Shown piece by piece: positions 15,425 to 54,405 of a DNA stretch of 64,000 nt. The notes under the pieces are model-generated. The model was given only the letters and a program-made list of their open reading frames with translations. It made no database searches and was not told the DNA's origin. The number at the start of each line of letters is the position of its first letter. The first letter of the stretch is position 1. The stretch comes from an uncultured Acidobacteriota bacterium (GTDB taxonomy: Bacteria; Acidobacteriota; Thermoanaerobaculia; UBA5066): NCBI GenBank assembly GCA_963779415.1, contig CAVZYA010000001.1, forward strand, positions 928,001-992,000, written 5' to 3'. A program made the translations under genes and the position numbers.

Positions 15425-15666
15425 GACCCTGCGCCTTTCTTTCAGGCTGGTGGACTCTCGACTCTGAGGATCGTCATACCCTCGCCGACAGCGAGTCTCC
15501 CACACACCGCCGCCCCTGACTGTCCCGGGTCGCTTCCTCGAACGCCTCGACCGGAATCGGGAATAGACTTCCCCCAGTAACACGACCCTGACGGGCCGCC
15601 GGATTGAGCGCTGCCGCGCCGGGGGGCACGACCCGCCCCTTCCTCCGACCCGGGGAGGCACTTGGC

Positions 15667-23596: not shown

Positions 23597-23658
23597 CGGA
23601 ATTCCCTCCACCCTAATTGTGGCTCCGGGAACGCCCCCGCCTCACTGGGGCGTCTGCA

Positions 23659-26406
23659 TCACTTCCGGCCCGGCTCCGGTGCCCAGTTCAGGACGACGTG
23701 CACCGCGCTCGTCTTCCCGGTACGGTCGTACGTGAGAACCAGGAACTTCGATCCGTCCGGGGCGGGGACGTAGAAGTTCCGGGTTCCACCGGGCGTCGTC
23801 TCTCCCGTCGCCGCGTCGAAGAGCGCCTGCGGGGAGCCGGCCGTGAAGGCCGGCGAGGTCGAGACGGGCACCGCCATCAGCCGCCCGTCCGCCGCGAGAT
23901 AGAAGAGTTCCTTCCCGTCCCGCCTCCAGAGCGCCTGGTCGCCGCCTCCCGATGAGACCTGCCACTTTCCGCCCCCCGGCGGGAACGACTGGACGTAGAT
24001 TTCGGACCGGCCAGTCTCGTCCGAGGTGTACGAGAAGAACCTGCCGTCCGGAGAGAGAGCGGCGTGGGCCTCATTGACGGGCGAGTTCAGGAGCGGGACC
24101 GGCTTCTTGTCCCCGCCGAGGGGAAGCATCCAGAGGTCCATCTGGCTTTTCGGGTTCTGACTCTCCACGAGGATCGCCCGACCGTCCTTCGTCCAGTCGT
24201 CCGGCCACTTGGCCTCGTCGGATTTCCAGACGAGCTCCTCGGCCCCGACGCCTGACGCAGCCCTGACGAAGATGTCCGACTTGCCATTCCGGTCCGACCC
24301 ATAGGCGATCCGCTCGCCGTCCGGGGAAAAAATCGGGCTCGCATCCTCTCCTTTTCCGAACGTCAGGCGCGAGACGGTGTTGCGGACGAGATCGAGCATC
24401 CAGACATTGTTTTCGGCCGTACCACCCGTCGCACCGGCAACGACGCGCTTTCCGTCGGGAGAGAGGTAGAACTCGAGGAACGATCCCGGGGGAAGGACGG
24501 TGTCGAGAATGCGGCCGGACCGGTCCCGGTAAGCCAGCCTCCCGGCAGCCTCGTCGTACTCGCGATAGGCGAGGACGCCGCCGCGTGACGCGGAAAACGG
24601 GGAGTAGGCCGTCGGTCCCGAGTTGCCGACATTGTCGAGACCCTCCGCGACGAGAACGGGCGCTCCCGGAGGCCGATCGCTCTTCAGCTCCATCGGCATG
24701 AAGACGAGCCGGTTGTTCCGGGCGGTCAGGAGACCGCCCGGTTCGGCCCACTGGGCAAGGCCGACGCCCCCGGTGAGGCGGCGCGGCTTCGACGCCCCGG
24801 GCTCCGAAAGGAAGACCCCCCTTCCCTCGTCGCTCACCGCCATGGAGACAAAGAGGAATCTCTTCCCGTCGGGGAGGAAGGACGGCCAACGGTGGCTCGT
24901 CTGCTTCAACTCGTCCGAGAGCTTCGTGGCGGCGACAGGCGTCCCTCCTCGGGCGGAGATCCGGTAGAGCGGGTCGCGGGTCGACGGCGCGAAGAGGATG
25001 ACGTCGTCCGCGCCCCATGCCCCGCCCCGCCCGTCCGGCGCGTCGCAGAGTGTCTGGACTATTCCCGTCGCCACCTCGATGACGACGAGCTTTCCGCCCG
25101 AGAAGAAGCCGAGCGACCGGCCGTCCGGGGACCAGAACGGGAACTTCCCGTTCTCCGCGCCCCGGACGGGCTTCGACGTGCTCTCCGAGAGCGTCCGGAC
25201 CCAGATCCCGCTGGCCTCGTCGGACGCGAAGCCGGTGAAGGCGACCTGCCTCCCGTCCGGCGAGACCGCTAGCGAGAGACCCAGCGTCGTCTTCTCGGGC
25301 AGCGGAATATCGAAGCGGACGAGGCCGAAGGATGACGGCACGGATTGTGGGGCGCGAGCGCGCAGCGCGAGCGCCCCCGCTGCGATTGCCAACGCGGCTG
25401 CAATCGCCCAGGAGAAATAGAGAGACTTTCTGCTCCCTCGCGCAGACACCGCCTGTGCGCTGCGACCTACAGCGGAACGCGGCTCCGCCTGCTCTTCTTC
25501 GAAGGGTAATTGACCGGAGGAGCTCGCCGACGCGCCGAGCTCTTCTTCTATGGCGATCCGCGCATCCCCGATGTCGCGCAGGCGCTGCTTTACGTCCCGC
25601 TGGAGGCATCGGTGCAGCAGCTCTCTCACCTTCGAAGAAACCGGCGCGCGAATCGCGCTCCAGTCCGGCTCCTTCATCAGGACGGCGGCGAGAGTGTCGG
25701 AGACCGTCTCCCCCTCGAAGGCCCGCTTCCCCGTCAGCATCTCGTAGAGAACGCAGCCGAACGCCCAGACGTCCGTCCGCTTGTCGAGCGGCTTTCCGCG
25801 GGCCTGCTCCGGCGACATGTACGCCGCCGTCCCGAGGATCATCCCGGCCGCCGTGGCGCGAGCCGTCAGCGTGGGCGATTTCGTCAGCCCCCCGCCCGAT
25901 CCCCCTTTCGAAGAATCCCCTTCTCCCTCGAACGCCTTCGCAAGACCGAAGTCCAGTAGCTTCACCCTTCCGTCCGGAGTCACCTTGACGTTCGCCGGCT
26001 TGAGGTCCCGGTGGACGATCCCCTTCTCGTGCGCCGCCTCCAGCGCCTCGGCGATCTGACGGCCGTACCCAAGGGATTCCTCGAGAGGAAGAGGGCCGGA
26101 GACGAGTCGCTGCCCGAGGTCTTCTCCCTCGACCAGCTCCATCACGAGCAGATGCCTTCCCCCAATTTCTTCGAATGAGTAGATGGCGGCAATTCCGGGA
26201 TGGTTGAGCGTTGCGAGCATGCGCGCCTCGCGTTCGAACCGCGCTCTCCGGTCCTCATCCTCGAAAAACTCTTCGGGGAGGACCTTGATGGCGACGTCCC
26301 TCCCGAGCCGCGTGTCCTTCGCCCGGTAGACCTCGCCCATCCCCCCGGCGCCGAGGGGCGCTGCGATCTCGTACGAGCCGAGGCGGGTGCCGGGCGCGAT
26401 CGTCAT
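23659..26406 (-). CDS. K5: Ser/Thr protein kinase with TM helix and TolB-like propeller
   Basis: Start MTIAPGTRLGSYE at 26406; HRDLKPAN, DFG, TAAYMSPE; TM LYFSWAIAAALAIAAGALAL. Confidence 0.93.
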   Translation of the reverse strand: MTIAPGTRLGSYEIAAPLGAGGMGEVYRAKDTRLGRDVAIKVLPEEFFEDEDRRARFEREARMLATLNHPGIAAIYSFEEIGGRHLLVMELVEGEDLGQRLVSGPLPLEESLGYGRQIAEALEAAHEKGIVHRDLKPANVKVTPDGRVKLLDFGLAKAFEGEGDSSKGGSGGGLTKSPTLTARATAAGMILGTAAYMSPEQARGKPLDKRTDVWAFGCVLYEMLTGKRAFEGETVSDTLAAVLMKEPDWSAIRAPVSSKVRELLHRCLQRDVKQRLRDIGDARIAIEEELGASASSSGQLPFEEEQAEPRSAVGRSAQAVSARGSRKSLYFSWAIAAALAIAAGALALRARAPQSVPSSFGLVRFDIPLPEKTTLGLSLAVSPDGRQVAFTGFASDEASGIWVRTLSESTSKPVRGAENGKFPFWSPDGRSLGFFSGGKLVVIEVATGIVQTLCDAPDGRGGAWGADDVILFAPSTRDPLYRISARGGTPVAATKLSDELKQTSHRWPSFLPDGKRFLFVSMAVSDEGRGVFLSEPGASKPRRLTGGVGLAQWAEPGGLLTARNNRLVFMPMELKSDRPPGAPVLVAEGLDNVGNSGPTAYSPFSASRGGVLAYREYDEAAGRLAYRDRSGRILDTVLPPGSFLEFYLSPDGKRVVAGATGGTAENNVWMLDLVRNTVSRLTFGKGEDASPIFSPDGERIAYGSDRNGKSDIFVRAASGVGAEELVWKSDEAKWPDDWTKDGRAILVESQNPKSQMDLWMLPLGGDKKPVPLLNSPVNEAHAALSPDGRFFSYTSDETGRSEIYVQSFPPGGGKWQVSSGGGDQALWRRDGKELFYLAADGRLMAVPVSTSPAFTAGSPQALFDAATGETTPGGTRNFYVPAPDGSKFLVLTYDRTGKTSAVHVVLNWAPEPGRK

Positions 26407-29042: not shown

Positions 29043-29088
29043 CCGGACGTAACCGTTCCTTCCTCGCCCTGTCGTCGCCGTGGTTCCG

Positions 29089-30580
29089 TCACCGCGCCTT
29101 CTTCCCGCAGGCTTCGGAAAACCCGAGCTGACAGGCCCTGCGGAAGAACTCGACCGCGCGGCGACGATCGCGAGTCACTCCGTTCCCCTTCTCGTAGGCG
29201 ACGCCGAGGTCGAAGCACCCCTCGCCGTCGCCGCCCTTGCAGGCGAGGTCCAGGAAGGAGGCGGCCTTCGCCGCGTCCGGCACCACGCCCGCGCCGGCGG
29301 AGTAGACGGCCGCCGCGTTGAAGCAGCCGAACGAGTCTCCTCTGCCGCACCCGAGCTCCGAAAGCTCGCGGCCCTTCGTCAGGTCCTTCGGAATGCCATC
29401 GCCGGCGATGAAAAGGCCTCCGAGGAGCGAACAGGCACGCGAGCCGTTCTCGGAGGAGTGAACGTCGTCGGGGTTGGGCGTCCGATCGCAGGCCTCCCGG
29501 AAGATGGCGGCCGCACGCGGTTCGTCCACCTCGACGCCGATTCCGTCTCGGTACGCGCGCCCGAGGTTCACGCAGCCGCCCAGGTTCGACGGCTGGCAGC
29601 TCGTGCCCTCGCACCCGCGCCGGTAGAGCGCAACGGCCCGGGACTTGTCCGTCGCGACTCCTCTGCCTTTCTCGTAGAGGAAGCCGAGGTTGGTGCAGCC
29701 GGTCGTGCTGCCGAGGGTGCAGGCCTCCTCGTACCCCGCCACGGCGCGCGCGACGTCGTGGGCGCCACCGCGCCCCTCATCGGCCATGAGCGCCGCGTTG
29801 TAGCACCCCTGCGCGTCGCCGAGGTCGCACGCCTCGTTGTAGAGCGCGGTGGCGCGGTGGTCGTCCTTCTTCACGAACTTTCCCGTTGCATGGAGGAATG
29901 CCAGGTTCGCGCAGCCGGCGCCGCTCCCGAGCTTGCAGGATCGTTCGGCCGCGGCGACGGATTCGCTTCCCTTGTCCGGCTCGTCCATGAGCTGCAGGGC
30001 CTCGTAGGCACATGCCTCTGCGGAGCCGGAATTGCAGGCCTCCTTGAAGAGCTCGAGAGCGCGCGCGACTTTCGGCCCTCCCCGGCGGCTCCAGAGGAGC
30101 CAGCCCTCCCGGAAGCAGGCGCTCGCGCGGCCGTCCTGACAGGCTTTCTCGAGGAGGGCGTCCTGGTCGACCGCAGACAACAGTCACGTCGAATCTCGTT
30201 CCCGCTCGCCACACCGAGACGCGGACGGGACCACACGAGCGGTTGAAGGCGGCGTCGCCGAAGTCGCAGTCGGTCGCGATGTGAGCCGTGCCGATTTCCT
30301 CCACGACGTCGTTCGGGCGGATCTCCGCCGCCTCGGCGGGGCCTCCGGGCCAGACGTCGGTCACGACCGCGCCCCGGAGCTCCTCCGGCAGAGCGAGCCT
30401 CTTCCGGAGCTGCCTCGAGAGGGGGCCGGCGTCGATGCCGAGCGTTCCGAGGCACCGCGCGGCCGCGGCGGGCGGCGAAGGCGCCGGCGCGGAGGAGGTG
30501 CCGGCGCAGCCTGCGGTCAGAACCGCGGCTCCCAAGGCGATTGCCGCGTCAAGCCGTGCCAAAACCCGTCCGGTCCTCAT
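29089..30580 (-). CDS. Lipoprotein with PDZ domain and Cys-rich Sel1-like repeats; one +1 frameshift near 30181 as assembled
   Basis: LTAGC lipobox; GAVVTDVWPGGPAEAAEIRPNDVVEEI (PDZ); ACxLGxxxGCxNLGxLY repeats; ATGA overlap with K7; removing one base gives ...FDVTLSAVDQ... Confidence 0.82.
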
Positions 30581-33360
30581 CGAGCGTCCTTCGTCCCTTC
30601 CCCGGCCCCCAGGCCCTGGCCCCAGTTGAGCGCGATGGCCACCTGACGGCCCTGCGACCCCTCTCTCCGAAACTCGACGAACGCAAAACGCTTTCCGTCG
30701 GACGAGACGTCCCAATTGACGATCGGGTTCGTCCTCCACGAGTACCCCTCGAGCCCTCCGAAGACGAGCTGGGCCGGCCCTGCCCGGAAAGACGGACGCG
30801 TCTCCACATCCACCTTCATCACACGGGAGTTCTGGATGAAGAAGAGCTCGCGGCCGTTCCCGGACCACTTCGGAAACCCTCCGAGGTCCGGCGAAACCTG
30901 CCATCTCGCGTCCCCCTCGAGTGGCCTGACGAAGACAGAGATGCTCCCCGATCCCGCGGCTCCGTTGTAGGCGATGTAGCGGCCGTCGGGCGAGAAGGCG
31001 GGAGCGGCGGCGTCGGGGGCGAAGACGCGGCTCTTGCCGGTCTGTACGTCGACCAGCCGAAGCTCTCTCGCGTTGACGTCCGTGTAGGCGAGAAGCCGGC
31101 CATCGGGGCTCCAGGCAGTCGGAATGACCGCACGGGTTGACGTCTCGCCGATGAGAGTCGCCGAGCCGCTCCCGTCGGCAGGCTTCCGGTGGATTCCCGG
31201 CGACTCGCCCGCCGTCACGACAAAGGCGATCTGCTTGCCGTCCGGGGACCAGACCGGTGCGGCACTGTACTCGTCGAACGTGAGACGGTTTGGCGCCATG
31301 TCGGAGAGCGAGAGCGTCCAGACGTCTCCCGCAAGGCCTCCCCGCCCCTTCCCCACGTTGAAGGCCAGACGCCGGCCGTCCGGCGAGAAGACCGGCGTGT
31401 TGTAGTCCTGCGGCGGCAACGGCAGCCGCGTCGGCTTTCCGCTCCGGTCGATCAGGGTCAGCCAGGACTGGCCCGTCATCGCGCTTCCCGGAACCCAGGC
31501 GAGAGTGCCGTTCCGGGCGACGGAGAGATAGGAGACTCCGCTCGTCGGGTCCCCTCCAAGCTCGCGGAGCACCGGATAGGGCTCCCCCCGGACGGTGGCC
31601 GTCTTCGGATCGAATGCGATCGCAAAGAGGGTCCCGAGACGTACGAAGACGAGCCGGTCGGGCCCCACGAAGCGTGCCGTGCTCGCACCCTTGACGAGCG
31701 TTCGGATCTTGCCTTCGGAGACGACCGCGATGTCGGCACCGTCGTAGTTCTGCGGGCTGTTCTCCCATCCGATCGTGAAGAGGATCCCGGCTCCGTTCGG
31801 CAGGGCCTCGGGCCAGCGGAACGTCCGTTCGTTCTTCTTCGGGTCGGGTTTGGCGAGCTCCATAGGGGCGCCACCGCCCGCCGGAACACGCATGAGGCCT
31901 GAGGCGTATTCCGGCGAATAGACGATCGTGTCGTCCGGCGCCCAGCAGCCTCCGCGAGGCGCCGGCGCGTCGGCGAGCGTCACGGGAATCCCTCCGGACA
32001 GAAGCAGCTTCTTCAGCTTCCCGTCGGCGAAGAAGGCGATCCACTCTCCGTCCGGCGAGAAGAACGGGTTGCTCGCCCCCTCGCTTCCGGAGATGACCGC
32101 GCCGTGAAGCTCCTCGAGCGACCGGAGCACGAGGTGAGAAATGCCGGTCTTTTCGTCGAGGGCCTGCATGACGAGCCAGCGGCCGTCCGCCGAGAGGGCC
32201 ATGTCGGCCACGTCGTCCAGGACGAGCCGCGACCCCTCCGGCAGGGGCACCGTGAAGCGCGTGATCCCCTTCGGCGCGATCTTCGGGGCACGAGCGCGCA
32301 GCGCGAGCGCCCCCGTCGCGGCCGCGAATGCGGCCGCAATCGCCCAGGAGAGATAGAGAGACTTTCTGCTCCCTCGCGTTCGACTCGCAGAAGCGTCGCG
32401 ACCTACAGTGGAACTTGGCGAGGCGGTCTTTTCTTCGAAGGGTAATGGGCCGGAGGAGCTCGCCGACGCGCCGAGCTCTTCCTCGAGGGCGATCCGCGCG
32501 TCCCCGATGTCGCGCAGGCGCTGCTTCACGTCACGCTGAAGGCACCGGTGCAGCAGCTCTCTCACCTTAGAAGAAACCGGCGCGCGAAGCGCGCTCCAGT
32601 CCGGCTCCTTCGTCAGCAACGCGGCCAGCGTGTCGCTGACGGTCTCCCCTTCGAAGGCCCGCTTCCCCGTCAGCATCTCGTAGAGGACGCAGCCGAAAGC
32701 CCAGACGTCCGTCCGCTTGTCGAGCGGCTTGCCGCGCGCCTGCTCGGGGCTCATGTACGCGGCCGTCCCGAGGATCACCCCCGCCGCCGTGGCGCGAGCC
32801 GTGAGCGTCGGCGACTTCGTCTGCCCCCCGCCGCTTCCGCTCTTCTCGTTCGACGAATCGCCTTCGAAGATCTTCGCGAGGCCGAAGTCGAGGAGCTTCA
32901 CCCGCCCGTCGGGCGTGACCTTGACGTTCGCCGGTTTCAGGTCCCGATGGACGATCCCCTTCTCGTGCGCCGCTTCCAGCGCCTCGGCGATCTGCTTCGC
33001 GTATGCGAGTGATTCGTCCAGCGGAAGCGGGCCCGGGACGAGTCGCTGCCCGAGGTCTTCTCCCTCGACGAGCTCCATGACGAGAAGGTGGCGGGAGGAA
33101 GAAGACGAGGACCCGGGGATTTCTTCGAAGGAGTAGAGGGTGGCGATCCCCGGATGGTTCAGGCTCGCCAACATGCGAGCCTCTCGCTCGAACCTCTGCC
33201 TTCTCTCTTCACTTTCGAAGAATTCTTCCGGCAGGACTTTCAGCGCAACGTCTCTACCGAGCCGCGTGTCCTTCGCCCGCCAGACCTCCCCCATCCCGCC
33301 CGCACCGAGGGGGCTCTGGATCTCGTACGAGCCGAGGCGGGTGCCGGCGGCGAGCGTCAA
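30577..33360 (-). CDS. K7: Ser/Thr protein kinase with TM helix and TolB-like propeller (mosaic gene)
   Basis: TTG start at 33360 after GAGGAAG; HRDLKPAN, DFG, TAAYMSPE; TM LYLSWAIAAAFAAATGALAL. Confidence 0.92.
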   Translation of the reverse strand: MTLAAGTRLGSYEIQSPLGAGGMGEVWRAKDTRLGRDVALKVLPEEFFESEERRQRFEREARMLASLNHPGIATLYSFEEIPGSSSSSSRHLLVMELVEGEDLGQRLVPGPLPLDESLAYAKQIAEALEAAHEKGIVHRDLKPANVKVTPDGRVKLLDFGLAKIFEGDSSNEKSGSGGGQTKSPTLTARATAAGVILGTAAYMSPEQARGKPLDKRTDVWAFGCVLYEMLTGKRAFEGETVSDTLAALLTKEPDWSALRAPVSSKVRELLHRCLQRDVKQRLRDIGDARIALEEELGASASSSGPLPFEEKTASPSSTVGRDASASRTRGSRKSLYLSWAIAAAFAAATGALALRARAPKIAPKGITRFTVPLPEGSRLVLDDVADMALSADGRWLVMQALDEKTGISHLVLRSLEELHGAVISGSEGASNPFFSPDGEWIAFFADGKLKKLLLSGGIPVTLADAPAPRGGCWAPDDTIVYSPEYASGLMRVPAGGGAPMELAKPDPKKNERTFRWPEALPNGAGILFTIGWENSPQNYDGADIAVVSEGKIRTLVKGASTARFVGPDRLVFVRLGTLFAIAFDPKTATVRGEPYPVLRELGGDPTSGVSYLSVARNGTLAWVPGSAMTGQSWLTLIDRSGKPTRLPLPPQDYNTPVFSPDGRRLAFNVGKGRGGLAGDVWTLSLSDMAPNRLTFDEYSAAPVWSPDGKQIAFVVTAGESPGIHRKPADGSGSATLIGETSTRAVIPTAWSPDGRLLAYTDVNARELRLVDVQTGKSRVFAPDAAAPAFSPDGRYIAYNGAAGSGSISVFVRPLEGDARWQVSPDLGGFPKWSGNGRELFFIQNSRVMKVDVETRPSFRAGPAQLVFGGLEGYSWRTNPIVNWDVSSDGKRFAFVEFRREGSQGRQVAIALNWGQGLGAGEGTKDAR
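32291..32462. repeat. 172-bp juxtamembrane+TM patch of K7, repeated at 35076-35247 in K8
   Basis: Manual alignment, 1 mismatch (32399/35184); a diverged third copy lies in K5 at about 25352-25530. Confidence 0.9.
33257..33345. repeat. 89-bp identical 5' patch of K7, repeated at 36036-36124 in K8
   Basis: Manual alignment, no mismatches. Confidence 0.9.
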
Positions 33361-33370
33361 GCGGTCTTCC

Positions 33371-36139: not shown

Positions 36140-36176
36140 CGAATGCACGACATGTTCATGCAACACGATCGGCCGG

Positions 36177-41464: not shown

Positions 41465-41465
41465 G

Positions 41466-44117
41466 TCAGCGCCCTTCCTCCGCAAACCAGTTCAGAACGA
41501 CCGTCGTGGGAGTCATGGCCTCGCGCCCGAGCGGGGCGGCGGTGAGAAAGCGGCGCCCGTCGGCCGTGGGCAAATAGCGGCTGCGCATCACTCCCGTCAC
41601 GAACCGTCCCGAGAAGAGCGGCTGCGGGACGCCGGCCGCAAAGCCGCCGGCTGTCTGGATGGCGACGGCCATGACCTTCTGGTCGGGCGCGCGGTAGTAG
41701 AGCTCTTTTCCGTCGGCCCGCCAATGGGGCTCCACCCCTCCCGACGTGGAGATCTGCCACTTCCCTCCCGGCCCGGGGAAGTTCTGGACATAGACTTCGG
41801 CCCGGCCTGACTCGTTCGACGTGTACGCGAGAAAACGGCCGTCGGGCGAAAGGACGGGCAGGACTTCGGCGAACTGGGTCGCCAGGAATGGAACCGGCTT
41901 CCGATCGCCGGACAGGGGGAGCGCCCAGATGTCCCAGCCGGTCTCTTTCGACTGCTTCATGAAAATCACGGTCTTCCCGTCACGAGACCAGTCGCACGGA
42001 ATCTTCAGCTCGTCCGACTTCAGCAGGAGCTTCTCTTCTCCCTGTCCATCGGCCCCCTTCTCGAAGAGGTCCTGGTTGCGCGTGAAGGCGATCGTCCGGC
42101 CGTCCGGAGACCAGATGGGGCAGAACGAGTCGCCGGCGCCGAAAGTGAGGCGGGAGCTGACCCCGCGCTTCAGGTCGCGGACCCAGACGTCGAGCCTGCC
42201 GCCGCGCGGATCGGCAAGGTCGAAGGCGAGCCGGTCGCCTTCCAGAGAGAGGGCCGGATTGTGATATTCGCCCGGATCGCCAACGTTCTCCGCTTCGTGG
42301 CCGGAGCGGTCCACCCAGACCAGCCGGTTCCCCGACTCGCCCGTCCGGTAGACGAGGGTCCCGTCCCGCGAGACCGAGAATCGCGCGAGACCGACGGCGT
42401 CGGTTCCGATGTGCTCGGCCAGGGGGACCGGCTCGCCAGTCGTCTTCAGCGCCTTCGCGTCGAAGGGTTGGGCGACGAGCGTCCGGTCGCGGACGAAGAG
42501 AAGATAGCCGGGTGGCGCGTACGCGACGAGCGTCTGCGCCGGCGCGAGCGACTTCGTTTCCGTCGAGTCGAGGGAGCCGATCCGGTACTCGTTCTCCTCC
42601 GGCTTCTGCCCGGTCGCCATGTAGAGGAAGTGCCGGCCGTCGGGCAGGAACTCCGGCCATGCGACCGTCACCTCCTTGAGGGCCGGTTCGGGCTTGACCG
42701 CGACGACCGGCGTCCCCCCGGCGGCCGAGACGCGGTGGATCGGATCGGTGGCGGTGCCGTCGTACAGAATGACGCCTTCGGGGCTCCAGGTGCCGTCCGA
42801 GCCGGTCGGGGCGTCGCAGATCTTCTGGGCCGGCCCGCCGGTGGCCTCGACCTTCTTCAGCTTCCCTTCGGCCACGAAGCCGAGGAACCGGCTGTCCGGG
42901 GACCAGAAGGGGCGCGTCGTCCCCTCGGTGCCTTCGAGCGGATGCGCCGCCAGCGCGTTCAGCGCCCGCACCCAGATTCGCGTCTTCCCGGAGGAGTCCG
43001 TCGCGTTGAACGCCAGAGTGCGCCCGTCGGGCGAGATGCGGGGCGCGCCGACCGACGTGACCCCTTCCGGCATGGGAATCTCGAACCGGACGGCGCGGCG
43101 TGGCGCCGGAGCGCGGCGGACGAAGCCGATGCCGAGAGCCAGGGCCGCGAGCGCGGCGACGCCGGCGACCGCCCAGGCGAGCTTCTCGCGGTTCTTCCTC
43201 CGCGCCACCACCGGCGCGGGGAGGCCGGCCTGCGAGCCCCCCTCCGCGATCCACTGAAGCTGCAGCCGGATGTCGTGAGCCGTCTGGAAGCGGTCCTCGG
43301 GATCCTTCGCAAGACAGGTCTTCACGACGCGGTCCAGCGCCGGCGGCGTCATCGGAGCGACCGCGGCGACCGAGGCCGGTTCGTCCTTCAGTATTGCCGA
43401 GATGAGCGCGGCCTGGCTCTTTCCGTCGAACGCCTTTCGGCCCGTCGCCATCTCGTAGAGCACGGCGCCGAACGAGAAGATGTCGCTCCGGGCGTCGGCG
43501 TCCTTCCCCTCGAGCTGCTCGGGCGCCATGTACTGGAAGGTGCCGAGGATCGTCCCCTGCTGCGTGATCGCCCTCGGCATCTCGGTCGGAAGCGACGTGG
43601 CCGAGGACGACTTCACCGGCGGCAGCGCCGTCTTGGCGAGGCCGAAGTCGAGGAGCTTCACGCCGGACTTCGTCAGCATGACGTTCCCCGGCTTCAGATC
43701 GCGGTGAATGATGCCGGCGTGGTGCGCCGCGTCGAGGGCCGCCGCGATCTCGATCGAGACCTTCAGGAGCTGTTCCGGTGGGAGCGGTCCGTTCGCCAGC
43801 CGTTCCATGAGCGTCTGTCCATCGGCCAGCTCCATGACGAGCAGATGCCGCTCCGGCTGCCCAGGCGCACCGGGAATCTCCTCGAAGGAATAGAGATGGG
43901 CGATGTTGGGATGGTTCAGGCTCGCGAGCATGCGCGCCTCGCGCTCGAAGCGCGCGATGCTCTCCCTGTTCTCGAAGAACTCTTCCGGCAGGACCTTCAG
44001 CGCGACCGTCCGCTCGACGCGGGTGTCTTTCGCTCTGTAAACCTCTCCCATCCCGCCTCTCCCGAGCGGCGAGAGGACCTCGTAAGGGCCGAGCTGGGTT
44101 CCGGTCGTGATCGTCAT
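41466..44117 (-). CDS. K11: Ser/Thr protein kinase with TM helix and TolB-like propeller
   Basis: Start MTITTGTQLGPYE at 44117; GRGGMG, HRDLKPGN, DFG, QYMAPE; TM LAWAVAGVAALAALALGIGFV. Confidence 0.93.
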   Translation of the reverse strand: MTITTGTQLGPYEVLSPLGRGGMGEVYRAKDTRVERTVALKVLPEEFFENRESIARFEREARMLASLNHPNIAHLYSFEEIPGAPGQPERHLLVMELADGQTLMERLANGPLPPEQLLKVSIEIAAALDAAHHAGIIHRDLKPGNVMLTKSGVKLLDFGLAKTALPPVKSSSATSLPTEMPRAITQQGTILGTFQYMAPEQLEGKDADARSDIFSFGAVLYEMATGRKAFDGKSQAALISAILKDEPASVAAVAPMTPPALDRVVKTCLAKDPEDRFQTAHDIRLQLQWIAEGGSQAGLPAPVVARRKNREKLAWAVAGVAALAALALGIGFVRRAPAPRRAVRFEIPMPEGVTSVGAPRISPDGRTLAFNATDSSGKTRIWVRALNALAAHPLEGTEGTTRPFWSPDSRFLGFVAEGKLKKVEATGGPAQKICDAPTGSDGTWSPEGVILYDGTATDPIHRVSAAGGTPVVAVKPEPALKEVTVAWPEFLPDGRHFLYMATGQKPEENEYRIGSLDSTETKSLAPAQTLVAYAPPGYLLFVRDRTLVAQPFDAKALKTTGEPVPLAEHIGTDAVGLARFSVSRDGTLVYRTGESGNRLVWVDRSGHEAENVGDPGEYHNPALSLEGDRLAFDLADPRGGRLDVWVRDLKRGVSSRLTFGAGDSFCPIWSPDGRTIAFTRNQDLFEKGADGQGEEKLLLKSDELKIPCDWSRDGKTVIFMKQSKETGWDIWALPLSGDRKPVPFLATQFAEVLPVLSPDGRFLAYTSNESGRAEVYVQNFPGPGGKWQISTSGGVEPHWRADGKELYYRAPDQKVMAVAIQTAGGFAAGVPQPLFSGRFVTGVMRSRYLPTADGRRFLTAAPLGREAMTPTTVVLNWFAEEGR

Positions 44118-46691
44118 CGCGCCCCCTCCACGAGAAAAAGATGCGACACCATCCGTCGACAGGCGTACGCGTAGTTCCTGCCGTCGTCGGTGAAGACGAA
44201 CGGTCCGACGCTCAGGACCCCGGTCAGGTCCGCGGGACCGATCTTCATCAGCGGCCCGCGCTTCCCCGTCGCGACCTCCAGCCGCTCGATGCGCGCCGGG
44301 ACTTCGCCGCTTCGGGTGACGAGAAGGGAGCGGCCCTCCGGGCTCCATCGGATGACGGAGTCGTCGGAAGCCGATCCGGGCACGGGCCGAGGCTCGCCCT
44401 CTTCGGACGGATAGAGCATGAGGGCGCCGCCGTTCGCCGTGACGAGGATCTGCCGACCGTCCGGCGAGACGAAAGCCTGATTCGTCCCTTCCGGAGTCAC
44501 GGGGCGGGGCTTGCCGCCCGCGATCTCCTGCACGTAGCAGCGGACGCCCTTGCCCTCCTCGTGGCCGCAGACGACGATCCTCTTGCCGTCCGGGAAGAAC
44601 TGCCCCGACTCGTAGCTGACGAGGCCGCCGCGCTCGAGTCGGCGCGGCTCGCCGGCACCCGTCGGGTAGAGCATGAGTTGCGGAGGGCGTCGTCGGAACG
44701 GCCGCCAGCGCCCACTTCCCGTCGCGGGAAAGGTCCAGGGCAGCCCCTTCGCCGAGACGCACGACGGGCGACCCGTCCGTCTGTCGCAGGCAGACCGCAT
44801 AGTTCACCCCGACACTCCCGCTCTCTTCCATGAAGAGAAGCGTCCTGCCGTCCGGGGTCAGCGCCACGGGGTCGGAGAGGTCGAGCCAGGAGAGGTCCCG
44901 CTCGCGCGCCTGCCCGGGCGCGAGGGCCGGCATCTCCCGGAAGAAATCGTCCCGTGTCGCGAGCCAGCGCCCGTCACCGCGAATGTCGTGAATCGTCAGG
45001 CCGCCGGCGCTTTCGAGCGCTGTCCGGCGCTTGCCCGAGAGGCTGACCGCATAGACACGGAAGTTGTTGTAGGCGGTCCCCGCGGAAAACATGACCTCGT
45101 CCCCCTCCGGCGACCAGGCCAGACCCTCCTCGCCCCAGTAACCCTCCGAAAGGATGGTCTTCTTTCCCGCGAGGTCCACGACGGCGACCTCGCCGCGATC
45201 GTCGTACTTGAAAGGGTGCTCGAAGAACGCGATCCGGTCCCCGCGCGGCGAAAAACGCGGGTCGCTGAAGTAGCCGCCCGTCTCGCAGAGAACCTTCCCG
45301 GCAGGGAACTCCAGCCGGTCCTTCCCGCCGACGTCGCGAATCACGGCGAGGTCCGCCCCGTCCGGAGACCAGTCGGCCTCGCGCACCCCGTCGCGCATCT
45401 CCCGGGGGGCGCCTCCTTCCAACGGCATCCGCGCGAGCGTCCCTTCGAAGAGGCTGTGCGCCCTGTAATGCGCGCGGATGAGGACGGCCAGCTCCCCCCG
45501 GGACGAGATGGAGAGCAGATGGCCGCCGGGCAGCAGCCCGCGGGGGCTCGCACCCGGATAGTCCGAGCGAATCGAGAAAATCTCCGGCGTGTTGCCGGAC
45601 GACGCCGCGCTGTAGACGACGGTCTTTCCGTCCGGGGCGAGCCGGGCGTTGAAGATCGGCTCCTGCCGGAACGTGAGCTGCCCGAAGGACGGGACGGCTG
45701 CGATCGATCTCTTCCCCCGCCACTGCCCGACGGCATACGAGAGGGCGGCGGCGAGGAGAGCCAGGGCGACGGCGGCCGCCGGCAACCACCGCCGGCCGCC
45801 ACGGGGCGACGCCGGTGTGGCCGCGCGGCCGGTAGAGGAGCTTCCCGCGAGCGCCTCGAGGTCGAACGCGAGGTCGCGAGCCGACTGGAAGCGCTCCTCC
45901 GGCTTCTTCTCCAGACAGTGCCGCAGGAGCCGGTCGAGCTCGGGGGAGATCTTCGCGCCCGAGACGTCCGGCTCCGCCGGCTCCTCCTTCAGGATCGCGC
46001 TCATCGTCTCGACCGCCGACCCGCCCTTGAATGCCCGCCGGCCGGTCAGCATCTCGTAGAGGACGCATCCGAATGCGAAGATGTCCGACCGCGCGTCGGC
46101 CGCCTCCCCTTCACCTGCTCGGGCGCCATGTAACCGAGGGTCCCGAGGAGAGTCCCGGCGTCCGTGGCCTTCGCGAGCGTCGGCGAGTTCGTGTCGTCCG
46201 CCCTCCGCGACCAGCCGCTGCTTGGCGAGCCCGAAGTCGAGGATCTTCACGCGCCCGTCCGTCGTGACGAAGAGGTTCTCGGGCTTGAGGTCCCGGTGGA
46301 CGATCCCCTTCTCGTGCGCCGCCGCGAGGCCGCGGGCCATCTGCACGGACCAGTCGAGGGCCTTGCGCGTCGCGGGACGCCCCGCCGCCAGGGCCTGCCG
46401 CAGCGTCTCGCCTTCGAGGAGCTCCATGACGAGGATGTGCCGCCCCCCGCTTTCTTCGAAGGAATAGATCGCCGCGATGTTGGGATGGTTCAGCGCGGCC
46501 AGCAGCTTCGCCTCTCTCTCGAGCCGCTGCCTCTTCTCTTCACTTTCGAAGAACTCTTCGGGCAGCACCTTGACCGCGACGTCGCGGTCGAGACGGGTGT
46601 CCTTGGCCCTGTAAACCTCTCCCATTCCCCCCGCGCCGATCGGGGCGAGGACTTCGTAGGCGCCGAGGCGCGTGCCGGGAGCGAGCGTCAC
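44114..46691 (-). CDS. K12: Ser/Thr kinase-TM-propeller with frameshifts near 46199, 46107 and 44683 (probable consensus errors, or a pseudogene)
   Basis: GTG start at 46691; [11 protein letters not shown]; GTLGYMAPEQVKG is recovered in a shifted frame; C-terminus SHLFLVEGAR lies in ORF 44114-44800. Confidence 0.8.
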
Positions 46692-49286
46692 CGCAGTCCC
46701 TCGACGACGTAGAGGTCGGACAGTTTCCGGCCGTACGAGAACGCCCAGCTCCTTCCGTCCCGCGTGACGTGCGTACCGAAGACGTCGACGATGCCCGTCG
46801 GGTCGGCGGGGACGAGATCCTTGTAGGGCTCCGCCTGGCCGGTCGCAAGGTCGAGCCGAAAGATCCTCGCCGGGAGGTCTCTTCCCCGCCGCACCCAGAT
46901 CGTCCCGTCCTTCGCGGCCGAACCCAGAACGATGTCGTCCGCCAGGATCCCCGGCACGGGCATGGGCTCGCCGCCGTCGAGCGACTGAAGGAAGGCCTTT
47001 CGCTCCGGCCCGATCGTGAGGAATCGCAGACCGTCGACCAGGCCCGTTCCGTTCGGCACCCGGTGGCCCTCGGGCGTCAGCGGCTTCGGCGCCCCCCCTT
47101 CGGAGTCGAGGAGGTAGGCGCGGTTGTCGTGCCCCGGCTCGGACGCCGTCATCAGGATTCGGCGGTTGTCGCCCAGCCACGCCGCCCCACGAACCCGGAG
47201 ATTCCCGAGCGGGAGCACCTTCGGCTCCCCGGGACCGGTCGGATAGATCGCGAGCTGCTGGTCGCCCGTCGGATGCACGATTGCGAGGACGCGCTTGCCG
47301 TCCGGGGAGAGCGCGAGCGCCTCGCCCTCCCCGAGACGGACGGCCGGCGAGCCGTCCGTGCCCCGGAGGAAGACCGAGTAGCCCGGCCCTCCCCCCTCGC
47401 CCGACTCGGTGAAGAGCACCGACCGGCCGTCCTGGGACAGGTCAGCGAGGAGGCTCCAGTCGAACCACGAGAGGTCGCGTTCGGCCGGATCCGCCGGCCC
47501 GCGCGTGACGACGCCGACCCGGATGAGGTCGTGCGTCATCAGGACGCGACCGTCCCGGGAGACGTCCTGAAGGGTCATGGAGCCCGCCCCGACGAGGAGG
47601 ACCCGGCTTCGCCCCGACGGCGCCACGGCACGAAGCACGCGGTTGCCGCCCGTCTCTGCCGCCGTGAACCAGATCTCCGAGCCGTCGGGCGACCACGCCA
47701 GCCCATCGGCGCTCGCGTACATGGGTGTCAGGATCGACTTCCTTCCCGACAGGTCGACGACGGCAACGGCGCCCCCGTCGTCGTTGCCGACGGGGTGGTC
47801 CAGGAAGGCGATCCGGTCTCCGCGCGGCGAGAAGCGCGGGTCGCCGATCCAGCCCGTCGTCTCGTACGAGGACCTTTCCGATCGGGTACTCGAGCCGCCG
47901 CCGGCCCGAGGCCCGGCGGACGACGGCGAGGTCCTTGCCGTCCGGCGCGAAATCCGCGAACTCGACCTCCTCGAGGATCTCGCGCGGCGCGCCGCCGCCC
48001 GTCGACGGCCGTGCGCGCGAGCGTTCCGACCCGCGTGAAGGCTCCGGAGAACCTCGAGTCGAGCGCGACGGCCATGTCGCCCGACGACGACGACGGAGAG
48101 GACGTCCGCGCCCTTGAGCCCGAACGGACGCGAGTCCGGCCCGTCGGACCGCCCGACGAAGATCTCCTCGGCGCCTCCGTCCCAGGCGGCGGAGTAGAGG
48201 ACCGACTGGCCGTCCGACCCGAAGCGGGCGTACCAGATGACGCCGCGTCGAAACGTGAGCTGGCGGAAGGAGGGCGGCGGCCGATGACCCGACCTCAGCG
48301 ACGGCGACGTAGGCGAGCGCCGGCCCCGGCGAGCGCCGCGACGACCAGAGCGCCGGCGAAGAGGCGCCTCGACGGCCGCGGCCGCGGCGCGACGCTCGTC
48401 GCCGCCGCCTCGGCCGCGCCGGAGAGACCGGAGAGCGCCTCGAGGTCGAACGCGAGGTCGCGCGCCGAGTAGAAGCGCTCCTCCGGGTTCTTCTCGAGGC
48501 AGTGCCGCACGATCCGCTCGAGCCCGGGCTGGACGTTCTTGTTCGTCGCGGAAAGGTCCGGCGGCTCCTCGCGCAGGATCGCCGAGATCGTCTCGGCCGC
48601 CGAGTCGCGGTGGAACGCGCGCTGTCCCGACAGCATCTCGTAGAGGATCGCGCCGAACGAGAAGAGGTCCGAGCGCTGGTCGGCGGGCTTGCCCTTCACC
48701 TGCTCGGGCGACATGTAGCCCAGCGTCCCCATCACGACGCCGGGCTCCGGTGCCGGCCGTCGCCGTCGGCAGGTTCGTCTGCGGACCGCCGCGCGCGCTC
48801 GGCCTGCGTCAGCTTCGCGAGGCCGAAGTCGAGGATCTTGACCCGCCCGTCGTTCGTCAGGAACAGGTTCTCGGGCTTCAGATCCCGGTGGACGATCCCC
48901 TTCTCGTGCGCGGCGGCGAGGCCCCTGCGCGATCTGCACCGCGTAGTCGATCGCCTTGCGCACCGGCGAGCGCGCCGCCCGACGATCCGCGCGCGCAGCG
49001 TCTCGCCCTCGAGCAGCTCGGTCACGATGTAGGGCGCGCCGTCGTGCGTGCCGAGGTCGTAGACCGCCGTGATGTTCGGGTGGTTCAGCGCGCCCGCCGC
49101 CTGCGCCTCCTGCTCGAAGCGCCGCAGACGGTCCGCGTCCTGCGAGTACGACGCCGGCAGGACCTTGATCGCGACGTCGCGCTTCAGCCGCTCGTCGCGC
49201 GCGCGGTAGACCTCGCCCATCCCGCCCGCGCCGATCGGCGCGAGGATTTCGTAGGGGCCGAGGCGGGTGCCGGAGGCGAGCGTCAT
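46688..49286 (-). pseudogene. K13: Ser/Thr kinase-TM-propeller broken by many single-base indels between ~47720 and ~48990 (artefact or pseudogene)
   Basis: Start [13 protein letters not shown] at 49286; [11 protein letters not shown] and LGYMSPE fall in alternating frames; intact C-terminal ORF 46688-47722 ends [10 protein letters not shown]. Confidence 0.75.
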
Positions 49287-51874
49287 CTCAGCCCTTCGAC
49301 GACGTAGAGCGTGCTGCGCTGGAGGATGTAGCGTGCGGCCATGCGCTTGCCGTCGTCGCTGAACCGGATCGACGAGCAGTCGACGCCCACGTAGCCCGCG
49401 GGGCTGGCCGTCTTCCACGGCTGCCTCTTCCCGCTCGCGGCGTCGAGGGTCCACACATCGACCGGGAAGGCTCCGGGCCGCGTCACTAGGAACCGGCCGT
49501 CGGGGCGCCATTGGGTCAGGACCTCGCCGTCCTCGAGGCCGGCGACGCGCCGCACCGGCGCGTCCGGCTTTGCGAAGTCGAAGATCGCCCACCCACCCTT
49601 CTCGCGCGCGAGGAAGCTCCGGCCATTCGGGCTCAGGAGCGGCCAGGTCTCGAGGCCCGTGACGCCTTCCAGCGTGAGGGGCTTCGGGGCGTTCCCGTCG
49701 AGGCCCAGCGACCAGACCCGGTCCTCCTTCTCCCCTTCCTGGCCGATGAAGACCAGGCTCTGGCCGTCTTTCGCGAACGAGACGGACTTGATGCTGCGGA
49801 TCCCGTGCGCCGGAAGCTCGCGCGGAACGCCGGTCCCGGTCGGATAGAGCACCCAGCGCGGCGCCGGCTTGTCGAGCCAGGCCGCCGCGAGCGTTCCATC
49901 CGGCGAGAGCGCGCCGTATCCGGCGCTCTTGCCGAGAGGCGTCGCGTGCCCTCCGGAGGACGGGCGCAGGAACAGGTCGTAGCCGCCGGGATCGCCCTCT
50001 TCCTCCTCGAAGAGCAGCGTCTTCCCGTCGGAAGAGGTGTCGAGAAGGTAGCTCCACGTCCGCCAGGAAAGGTCGAGCGGCTGAACCTGCCCCTCGGCCA
50101 ACGAGAGCAGCCCGCCACGCATCTCCTCGCGGCTCATGAGGACCCGGCCGTCCGGCGCGACGTCGTGGAGGTGGAGACCGCCCGCCTGGGTGAAGACGCC
50201 GCGCTCCTTTCCCGAGAGGTCCACGGCGTAGAGGGCGCGGTTCAGGATATGCGTTCCGGCGGTGAACCAGATCTCCTGCCCCCGCCACGCCAGGCCCCGG
50301 AGAGTTCCGTAGTCCTTCGACACGAACCGCGTCTTGCCGGAGGCGACGTCGAGGACCGCGATGCGGCCCGCATCGTCGCCCGCCGCCGGATGATCGACGT
50401 ACGCGAGGAGCGACCCGTCGGGAGAGAACCGGAGATCCCCGATCCACCCGGCCGACTCGACGCGGACCCTGCCGGGTGGGTAGTCGAGAAGGGACCGTCC
50501 GCCCGCGGCACGCACGACGGCGAACTCGGACTTCGGCGCCCACGCCGCCTGGAGAACGCCGCCGAGGATCGCCTTCGGAGCGAGGTCGCCGCCGAGGGCC
50601 GACCGGGCGAGCGTCCCCTCGAACTGCCACGTGTCCGCCACCTTGCTCTTGAGCCGCAGGACGAGCTCTCCCGCACGGGACAGATCGAGCAACTGGACGT
50701 CGGTCTGGCCGAGTGGCCTTTCCTTGGGATCGACGATCGGCGTCGCGAAGAGCTGCCACGGCTCTCCCTGCCAGCTCGCGTCGTAGATGACGTCCTGGCC
50801 GCCGGGCGCGAAGCGCGCCTTCGCGATGCGTCCCTGGCGAAACGAAACCTGGTGGAAGACGGGCTGCTCGTGGCGGCCCAGGTGAACGGCTCCCGCCAGC
50901 CATGCGGCCAGAGCGGCGACGAGGACGGCGGCCGCGCCCAGGCCGGACCACGTCCAGCGGTCTCCTCTCGGACGAACCTTCTGCTTCCCTCCGTCGACGC
51001 CGGAGATCGTCGAGATGGCCTGAAGGTCGAAGGCGACGTCCTTCATCGACTGGAAGCGGTTCTCGGGCGACTTTTCGAGGCAGTGGAGAACGACGCGCTC
51101 CAGCGCCGGCGGCATCTGGCCCTTCGTGACGACGAGCGCTGCGGGATCGTCGTGAAGGATGGCGTTCATCGTCTCGACGGCCGACTCCCTTCCGAACGCC
51201 TTCCGCCCGCTCAGCATTTCGTAGAGGACGGCCCCGAAGCCGAAGATGTCGCTGCGGGGATCCGCGCTCTCGCCCCGCACCTGCTCCGGGCTCATGTAGC
51301 CGACGGTCCCCATGACGACGCCGGCCTCGGTGTGTAGGCTTCCCCCGGCCTCCGTCGGGACGCTCGTCTGCGAGCCGCTCGGACCGGACCACTTCGGCAC
51401 CTGTTTCGCGAGTCCGAAATCCAGCAGCTTTACCCGACCGTCCCGGCCAAGGAAGATGTTCTCCGGCTTCACGTCCCGGTGGACGATTCCCCGATGATGG
51501 GCCGCGGCGAGACCCTCGGCCATCTGCGACGCGAGTTCTGCGGCCTTCTTCGGCGCGAGGGCGCCCGCCCGCAGGCGGTCGCGAAGCGATTCGCCCTCGA
51601 GTAGCTCCATCACGGCGTAGGTGTGCTCCCCCTCCCTCCCGAAATCGTAGATACCGAGAATGTTCGGGTGGTTGAGGGCGGCCACGGCCTTGGCCTCGCG
51701 CTCGAACCGTGTCAGGAGATCCCCGTTCTCCGCCAGGGAGGGAGGCAGCACCTTGATGGCGACGAAGCGGTCGAGCTTCGGGTCGCGGGCCTTGTAGACC
51801 TCGCCCATGCCCCCCGCACCAACCAGTGAGTTTATTTCGTACGGCCCAAGCCTCGCACCGGCTGTCAACGTCAT
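49283..51874 (-). CDS. K14: Ser/Thr protein kinase with TM helix and WD40/TolB-like propeller; first gene of the array
   Basis: [28 protein letters not shown]; [24 protein letters not shown]. Confidence 0.93.
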
Positions 51875-54363: not shown

Positions 54364-54405
54364 ACCGTCCGGACCTACGATCCTGTTCCGGAAAGGGAGG
54401 CCCCC

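Follow-up and report, generated by a model that had tools for sequence, protein, structure and literature searches.

A probable operon-like array of ten receptor Ser/Thr kinases between hisC-like and fhs genes of an uncultured Thermoanaerobaculia bacterium

This study deals with a 64,000-nucleotide (nt) stretch of DNA from an uncultured soil Acidobacteriota bacterium of the class Thermoanaerobaculia (assembly G000, GCA_963779415.1, C1:928001-992000; hereafter the window), in which ten genes for receptor-type Ser/Thr kinases, here named Ka to Kj, stand head to tail. We consider it probable that they constitute a lineage-typical, operon-like birth-and-death array of single-pass receptor kinases with modular gene conversion. 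Each gene would encode a cytoplasmic RD-type Hanks kinase of ~285 amino acids (aa), followed by a short juxtamembrane linker, one transmembrane (TM) helix, and a C-terminal periplasmic ectodomain of ~540–570 aa with two PD40/TolB-type beta-propellers. The genes are probably co-transcribed and translationally coupled. Periplasmic ligands, for which peptides or envelope proteins are plausible with this fold, would bind the propellers; ligand binding would lead to dimerisation and activation-loop autophosphorylation, and the signal may then be passed to cytoplasmic substrates such as FHA-domain proteins. The members would be old, distinct paralogs, each kept under purifying selection, at a locus that evolves by gain, loss, and reordering between species, and gene conversion would homogenise the kinase-juxtamembrane-TM module among some of them while the ectodomains stay distinct.

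Acidobacteriota are among the most abundant soil bacteria, and next to nothing is known about how they perceive their environment. With about 70 members in a 4-Mb genome, Hanks kinases make up a large share of the signalling capacity. Long arrays found across a lineage, with membership turnover between species and with gene conversion that treats the intracellular and the sensor module separately, together offer a concrete model of how a bacterial receptor repertoire arises and persists.

Layout of the array and architecture of its proteins

The assembly comprises 4.36 Mb in 3 contigs, with 68% G+C. The 28.4-kb interval between the hisC-like and fhs genes contains ten kinase genes and one lipoprotein gene, all on the minus strand (window 23659-51874). 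The order from hisC toward fhs is Ka to Kj, and the lipoprotein gene sits between Kh and Ki. The genes, with the evidence for each in brackets, are as follows; the ectodomain classes are described below.

49283..51874, minus: Ka, receptor Ser/Thr kinase, 863 aa, intact, ectodomain class A (Pkinase 170.6 bits, PD40 37.4 bits)
46688..49286, minus: Kb, receptor kinase in three frames, ectodomain class A (tblastn pieces in frames -3, -2, and -1; frame maps)
44114..46691, minus: Kc, receptor kinase with 3 frame changes, ectodomain class A (frame maps)
41466..44117, minus: Kd, receptor kinase, 883 aa, ectodomain class B (Pkinase 165.4 bits, PD40 102.7 bits)
38867..41464, minus: Ke, receptor kinase, 865 aa from GTG 41464 (alternative TTG 41485), ectodomain class A (profile matches, structure model)
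36177..38870, minus: Kf, receptor kinase, 897 aa, ectodomain class B (profile matches)
33371..36166, minus: Kg, receptor kinase, alternative start ATG 36139, ectodomain class C, PD40-rich (PD40 169 bits; TolB propeller E 2e-20)
30577..33405, minus: Kh, receptor kinase, likely start TTG 33360, ectodomain class B (profile matches)
29089..30580, minus: PDZ-Sel1 lipoprotein gene, split by one frame change (reading frames; PDZ_2, Sel1)
26403..29042, minus: Ki, receptor kinase, 879 aa, ectodomain class B (profile matches)
23659..26406, minus: Kj, receptor kinase, 915 aa, ectodomain class B (profile matches, structure model; 85% identical orthologue in G007)
52022..53155, plus: hisC-like aminotransferase, conserved flank, divergent from Ka (orthologues of 74–86% identity in 6 of 7 same-genus genomes)
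21968..23611, minus: fhs (formate-tetrahydrofolate ligase-like), conserved flank (87–91% identical orthologues in 4 of 7 same-genus genomes)

Six junctions show 4-nt overlaps, which read ATGA at Ka/Kb, Kc/Kd, Kh/lipoprotein, and Ki/Kj and GTGA at Kb/Kc and Ke/Kf. Other neighbours are separated by 1 nt (Kd and Ke), by 10 nt (Kf and Kg, or 37 nt with a Kg start at ATG 36139), and by 46 nt (the lipoprotein gene and Ki). The Kg/Kh junction is ambiguous, with a 10-nt gap if Kh starts at TTG 33360 or a 35-nt overlap if it starts at TTG 33405. From this arrangement, the junctions look translationally coupled. The whole genome carries 71 kinase-domain loci, 14 of them in the window. Grouped by run length, the 71 loci give a single run of ten, five pairs, and 51 loci that stand alone. 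By our own estimate, a 28-kb stretch should contain 0.46 of 71 loci spread over 4.36 Mb, so that ten in one same-strand run is far beyond chance (Poisson ~1e-10 per window). The four kinase genes outside the run are as follows.

3664-6375, minus: W1, further receptor kinase (4-nt overlap with W2)
6372-9065, minus: W2, further receptor kinase (4-nt overlap with W1)
15604-18399, plus: W3, further receptor kinase (recent pair with W4)
18463-21195, plus: W4, further receptor kinase (orthologue adjoins fhs in G005)

An earlier reading of this DNA, made from the sequence only, had described ten kinase-TM-propeller genes and one lipoprotein on one strand, six ATGA/GTGA overlaps, gaps of 1, 10, 37, and 46 nt, and four more paralogs nearby, 14 in total. 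Our open reading frames (ORFs) and the Pkinase and PD40 profiles bear out this gene content, the junctions agree (the 10 and 37 nt being alternative starts of Kg), and the four paralogs are W1 to W4. The same reading had all kinases retaining the Gly loop, Lys, HRD, DFG, and xPE. We found the Gly loop, VAxK, HRD, DFG, and xPE in 12 of the 12 single-frame window kinases; this statement stands for them, and in Kb and Kc the catalytic motifs are present only if the genes are read across frame breaks.

The array kinases are ~860–920 aa long. Pkinase PF00069 matched all eight single-frame array genes with 158.9–173.8 bits (cut-off 31.7), and PD40 PF07676 matched the same eight with 37–169 bits (cut-off 20.9). 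One Kyte-Doolittle peak (1.6–2.7 over 19 aa) lies at residues ~300–355 in each of the 14 window kinases; in Ka, the single predicted TM segment is at aa 312-330. The best solved sequence relative of all three ectodomain classes is TolB (E 8e-8, 2e-13, and 2e-20). AlphaFold2 modelled the Kj ectodomain (class B, alignment of 72 sequences) with a predicted local distance difference test score (pLDDT) of 88.5 and a predicted TM-score (pTM) of 0.86 as an all-beta structure of ~47 strands, and the Ke ectodomain (class A, 24 sequences) with pLDDT 89.5 and pTM 0.85, again all-beta (~40–47 strands across both models). Foldseek matched the two models to tandem-propeller proteins, including 2ymu, tricorn protease 1k32, LRP6, and TolB, and a single propeller of the Kj model to 2ojh, a putative TolB, with TMt 0.78. 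Because of the TolB relatives and these tandem-propeller matches, the models suggest that the ectodomain types are variants of one plan with two PD40-type propellers.

Three equivalog models stayed below their curated cut-offs. TolB proper (TIGR02800) gave 19–173 bits against a cut-off of 343 in five proteins, PknB/Stk1 PASTA (NF033483) gave 268–307 bits against 450, from the kinase domain only and with no Pfam PASTA match, and PknD (NF009651) gave 130–164 bits against 839.

Paralogs, gene conversion, and evolution of the locus

The window kinases fall into subtypes by kinase-domain identity, with 79–90% among Kf, Kg, Kh, and Kj, 79% between W3 and W4, 68% between Kd and Ki (55–56% with W1), and 56–79% among Ka, Kb, Kc, Ke, and W2. 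The ectodomains form class A (Ka, Kb, Kc, and Ke), class B (Kd, Kf, Kh, Ki, Kj, W1, W3, and W4), and class C (Kg and W2), and the class does not follow the kinase subtype. Paralog ectodomains are only 15–47% identical, with the exception of W3/W4 at 68%. Kh and Kj share 90% of their kinase domains and 32% of their ectodomains, and Kg has a kinase of the Kf/Kh/Kj subtype but a class C ectodomain, which groups with W2. The four kinase subtypes proposed from the sequence alone were thus reproduced by identity. The several ectodomain types proposed with them hold as three classes discordant with the subtypes, and all of them appear to be variants of the single two-propeller plan.

A repeat search found a 178-nt tract covering the juxtamembrane and TM part of Kh (32285..32462, minus) that is 99% identical to the corresponding tract of Kg (35070..35247, minus; 98.9% by blastn). 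In a sliding comparison, Kg and Kh are 97–98% identical in nucleotides and drop to 14–30% in amino acids directly after the TM segment. Because the 99% tract ends so sharply at the ectodomain, it indicates gene conversion, as judged from the alignment. The event would be recent, since the same juxtamembrane/TM cassette reaches only 74–88% identity in other genomes. The kinase tree pairs Kj with Kh (95–98% support) and not with its own orthologue in G007, and the approximately unbiased test rejects a grouping of Kj with that orthologue (p 0.016). Discordant best hits were also obtained domain by domain in G001, where the Kd orthologue has 62% identity over the kinase domain against 78% over the ectodomain, one gene joins a Kg-like kinase (87%) to a class B ectodomain, and another joins a Kj/Kh-like kinase (80–81%) to a class C ectodomain. 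The idea of a recombining cluster is therefore upheld by the Kg/Kh tract and by the discordance of subtype and ectodomain class.

The comparison with the seven same-genus genomes (G001 to G007) showed that the locus differs between species. In G003 (99% complete, 3 contigs), a stretch of 7.7 kb with 3 kinases separates hisC from fhs, against 28.4 kb and 10 in G000. Kinase arrays adjoin hisC in G001 to G005; their content, and that near fhs in G007, is as follows.

G005: orthologues of Ka, Kc, and Kd, then a Ke-like gene
G001: Kg-like, Kd, Ka, Ke, and Kh-like (five genes in a different order)
G002: Ki, Kj-like, and others
G004: at least ten kinases
G007: Kj orthologue (85%) near fhs

The Ka orthologues are 85% (G001) and 76% (G005) identical. 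In G006, the best match to the hisC-like aminotransferase reaches only 37%. Orthologues of the array members are 68–88% identical overall, and those of Ki, which are in pieces, 62–68%. As the paralog ectodomains share only 15–47%, most members would predate the genus, and the species differ by loss, gain, and reordering. Copy number and order across relatives had been named in the sequence-only reading as one check among several, with an array invariant between strains and not co-transcribed as evidence against it. Both vary within the genus (3 against 10 kinases, and other orders), as expected of birth-and-death between close relatives, and membership changes between congeneric species.

As a side observation, a kinase of ~670 aa directly adjoins fhs in three congeners (L001:10149-12200 in G003, L098:6319-8331 in G007, and L099:72-645 in G006). 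Its kinase domain is 62–67% identical to that of Kg, and its C-terminal part matches no window ectodomain. This gene is missing from the window, where Kj abuts fhs.

The ratio of nonsynonymous to synonymous substitution rates (dN/dS) was calculated pairwise and gene-wide by the Nei-Gojobori method, at dS 0.25–0.84. In ten orthologue pairs, it was 0.11–0.28 for the ectodomain and 0.12–0.39 for the kinase domain, and the flanking fhs and hisC gave 0.11–0.17. Orthologous ectodomains are 75–91% identical, and they are as conserved as the kinase domains or more. With these values, gene-wide diversifying selection is not supported; an elevated gene-wide dN/dS of the ligand-binding domain was not found in the ten pairs. 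Judged by such comparisons, the sensors are conserved, not hypervariable, at the gene-wide level. The word "diversifying", which had earlier been applied to this array in the sense of fast-evolving sensors, is not supported by ectodomain ratios this close to those of fhs and hisC.

Long kinase arrays are found well beyond this genus. All 21 genomes of the order, G000 included, have 41 to at least 76 Pkinase matches (this count, like that of the lipoprotein homologues below, includes the unpublished genomes G013 and G018, on which alone no claim depends). Among the matches listed, 585 of the 597 candidates proved to contain coding sequence related to Ke, and the closest loci are metagenome-assembled genomes (MAGs) of Acidobacteriota and Thermoanaerobaculia. 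In 78 related loci of up to 23 kb, same-strand tandem kinases number at least two in 52, at least four in 25, at least five in 21, and at least seven in 8. The longest same-strand runs contain 12 kinase domains (G021:C4:2021542-2058873) and 14 (G022:C4:358193-403307), both longer than that of the window, several of the matches in G021 and G022 being fragmentary. Homologues of the Kj ectodomain number at least 7836 and are mostly kinase fusions; where they have a name, it is "protein kinase" or "Tol biopolymer transport system component". The precomputed annotation places PF26549/PF26550 over the ectodomains of nearly all the listed homologues P0001-P0120.

On these genome comparisons, the array is lineage-typical and not unique. 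The earlier interpretation keeps its dynamic, recombining array and loses uniqueness, in view of the tandem runs of up to 12–14 kinases in related MAGs, together with the hypervariable repertoire. The general phenomenon is not new either, as the available parts of the literature describe kinase expansions with tandem duplicates and periplasmic repeats in myxobacteria, Planctomycetota, and Solibacter. In the literature searched, we found no description of long co-directional, overlap-coupled receptor-kinase arrays in Acidobacteriota, and supplementary tables may list tandem genes.

Frame changes and alternative explanations

The sequence-only reading treated all ten kinases as whole. In the assembly, Kb, Kc, and the lipoprotein gene are frameshifted. 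Codon-usage segmentation and three-frame translations revealed ~8 frame changes in Kb, packed in 47870-48980, which is 1.1 of its 2.6 kb; Kc has three (at ~46203, 46108, and 44690), and the lipoprotein gene has one near 30175. When the penalty was lowered, the segmentation also produced a spurious excursion in each of Kc and the control gene Kf, and these were discounted by eye. The three genes might be genuine pseudogenes in an array that is partly decaying after over-expansion, so that only eight kinases would be functional. The density of changes in Kb, far above the genome-wide candidate rate of about one per 7 kb, speaks for such decay, as do the changes in Kc and the lipoprotein gene, and the many array members missing from sister species would then mean that loss is ongoing. 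The restored readings of Kb and Kc contain no in-frame stops and keep every catalytic motif. The Kb orthologue in G003 is intact in a single frame (82% identity; dN/dS against Kb 0.20–0.30), and those of Kc are intact in G005 (80%) and G004 (78%), with dN/dS of 0.17–0.29. The values of 0.17–0.30 speak against decay, and the frameshift-dense part of Kb shows no rise (0.27 against 0.30). The confinement of the changes to 1.1 kb of Kb also speaks against it.

The rest of the genome was scanned with a codon-usage hidden Markov model, which is only a rough indicator, because it flagged just 3 of the ~12 frame changes in the array. It proposed 627 same-strand frame switches, which are clustered (37% of the gaps are below 1 kb, against 13% expected), as would be expected of local consensus errors. 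Five candidates were sampled from the 190 with long flanks. In two of them, the switch falls inside one Pfam domain of an unrelated enzyme (molybdopterin oxidoreductase in one case, AMP-binding in the other), and an assembly of 3 contigs in the long-read style is one where local consensus errors are expected. Since candidates are clustered genome-wide, unrelated enzymes are split, dN/dS is not raised, and orthologues are intact, the frame changes of Kb, Kc, and the lipoprotein gene are, from the sequence evidence, more likely consensus indels of the assembly than old pseudogenes. On the other side, the remaining three of the five samples resemble borders between genes, which means that the rate for the whole genome is too high, and the ~8 changes of Kb far exceed the genome average, for which reason real, very recent decay of Kb or Kc retains some weight. 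On balance, we consider the pseudogene explanation unlikely, if not strongly so. The findings suggest that indel-type consensus errors will affect any gene call in this genome; C1:2034327 and C1:1006353 are candidate examples. Among the congeners with 20 contigs, G004 (L002, L095) and G002 (L003) likewise have array kinases that are broken up into two or three frames, and two kinases are run together in ORFs 1743 and 1801 aa long.

Paralogous repeats in an assembly with indel-type errors also raise the question of whether the assembler put scattered paralogs together or enlarged a shorter array. With members only 60–90% identical in DNA outside the one 178-nt tract, a collapse or a false join is unlikely. 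Independent assemblies of five congeners also have kinase arrays adjoining hisC, and other MAGs contain runs of 12–14. The probability left for an artefact of this kind is very small.

The array was also considered as an immune-like, rapidly diversifying surveillance repertoire in the manner of plant receptor-like kinase (RLK) and R-gene clusters, with ectodomains that would evolve fast enough to keep pace with phage, competitors, or variable peptides. Copy number, order, and membership that differ between congeneric species, domain swaps with conversion tracts, and three ectodomain classes with paralog identities of only 15–47% are what such a repertoire would show, and the PADLOC kinase models PD-T4-6 and mad6 match the kinase domain. 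These matches are confined to residues ~1–300 or ~1–340, so none of the three anti-phage kinases sought (PD-T4-6, MADS MAD6, and BREX PglW) was recognised; with NCBIfam, MAD6 gave 143–158 bits against 460 and PglW 71–94 against 990. As the PADLOC and NCBIfam matches were to the generic kinase domain and below the family cut-offs, a defence-system reading was not adopted. The neighbours are metabolic (fhs, aminotransferase, acetate kinase, and phosphoketolase), and neither defence partner genes nor mobile genes were seen among the window genes scanned. The orthologous ectodomains are conserved, with ratios near those of the flanking genes. Challacombe et al. (2011, PMC3174227) reported, in the part of their paper available, that the kinase paralogs of Solibacter usitatus had expanded without positive selection. 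We therefore regard an immune-like repertoire as improbable, and the conservation of the sensors themselves is a caution against a hypervariable reading of such arrays.

A more specific proposal is that the hisC-fhs interval is a "receptor bank", in which distinct, conserved double-propeller sensors are mounted on a common cassette homogenised by gene conversion. Different periplasmic ligands would then feed into one cytoplasmic output, or members with identical TM and juxtamembrane segments (Kg and Kh, perhaps also Kj) would heterodimerise, and the receptors would be co-expressed from one overlap-coupled transcript; such banks would be widespread in Thermoanaerobaculia, with runs to 14. We hold this proposal to be speculative and rather doubtful. 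If it is true, it would be a bacterial counterpart of receptor clusters with variable ectodomains and constant tails, and Kg and Kh, with their identical TM segments, make a testable pair.

The reading as an operon-like birth-and-death array is the one we favour, and several points weigh against it. Scans for promoter-like sites gave 0 and 1, compared with 0.6 and 0.3 in shuffles, and those for terminator-like sites gave 8 and 6, compared with 9.2 and 7.0, which is uninformative. A sequencing-run search returned 11 DNA-type runs with word shares of up to 0.13 and no RNA run with the stretch. The predicted topology is based on the hydropathy window and the lack of a signal peptide. The approximately unbiased test on Kj and its G007 orthologue was applied to a clade chosen only after the kinase tree was seen. 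Pairwise, gene-wide ratios leave room for site-specific positive selection on the propeller faces. The comparison genomes are mostly MAGs, some of which are fragmented or frameshifted (G002 and G004).

Known systems, the lipoprotein gene, and neighbouring genes

PknD of M. tuberculosis has one six-bladed NHL propeller. The array proteins resemble it in having an N-terminal cytoplasmic Hanks kinase, a single TM segment, and an extracytoplasmic beta-propeller sensor, and differ in having two propellers of the PD40/TolB type; PknD is also a single gene outside any array. PknD was presumed to be activated through its sensor domain, according to the available part of PMC1847690.

For myxobacteria, Planctomycetota (Ca. 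Uabimicrobium, Gemmataceae), and Ca. Solibacter usitatus, the parts of the papers available describe expansions to tens or hundreds of kinases, most of which span the membrane, with the Pkinase domain in the cytoplasm and repeat domains in the periplasm. Membrane-spanning kinases with periplasmic WD40 or TPR arrays were reported to form species-specific clades, and some kinase duplicates of myxobacteria stand side by side as tandem duplications (PMC11032199, in the excerpt available, the latter citing Perez et al. 2008). PD40 was reported to be one of the commonest domains attached to kinases of prokaryotes (PMC2877116, likewise in part). In contrast to those expansions, as far as these excerpts describe them, the array considered here has overlap-coupled, co-directional runs of 10–14 genes, a conserved chromosomal locus with changing membership, and gene conversion that would be confined to the kinase-TM module; the repeat domains of the expansions are mainly WD40 and TPR, and here they are tandem PD40 propellers.

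The ectodomains share with TolB the PD40 repeats, the predicted periplasmic location, and the closest solved sequence relationship (E 8e-8 to 2e-20). TolB consists of an alpha/beta domain and one propeller, unlike the two propellers proposed here, and the array genes would not be Tol-Pal components because their ectodomains are fused to a kinase. Plant RLK clusters are tandem single-pass receptor kinases with variable ectodomains, varying copy number, and recombination. By analogy, the array resembles them in its tandem single-pass receptor kinases, in copy number that varies between close relatives, and in recombining members. It differs in the lack of gene-wide diversifying selection in the ectodomains and in its bacterial operon-like layout with 4-nt overlaps, and the two are of independent origin.

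The lipoprotein has a signal-like, Cys-containing N-terminus (…LTAGC…), followed by a PDZ domain and Sel1 repeats, and its gene is single-copy in the genome. No homologues (E<=1e-10) were detected in the seven same-genus genomes or in four of five other genomes of the family. Eight of eight genomes from two other families of the order have homologues of 57–67% identity, as single ORFs of 485–571 aa (485–619 aa over the homologues in other families of the order), and in the genomes with comparable coordinates these are not adjacent to the listed kinases. Because it has no congener homologues but 57–67% matches in other families, the gene looks like an incidental insertion in the array, and its distribution points to transfer into the array or to loss elsewhere. 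We rejected the idea that the PDZ-Sel1 lipoprotein is a co-sensor conserved with the kinases, as it is absent from the arrays of relatives and, where coordinates are comparable, lies apart from the listed kinases.

Possible partners of the kinases are the 10 FHA matches and the single PP2C_2 match in the genome. The window neighbours are metabolic, with acetate kinase, phosphoketolase, and a dienelactone hydrolase. Acetate kinase and phosphoketolase (XFP) are adjacent just past hisC, at 53170-56874, and form a phosphoketolase-pathway pair. At 58004-61378, there is a protein of 1124 aa with Sortilin-Vps10 and BNR repeats, then a protein of 777 aa with a weak serine-carboxypeptidase match.

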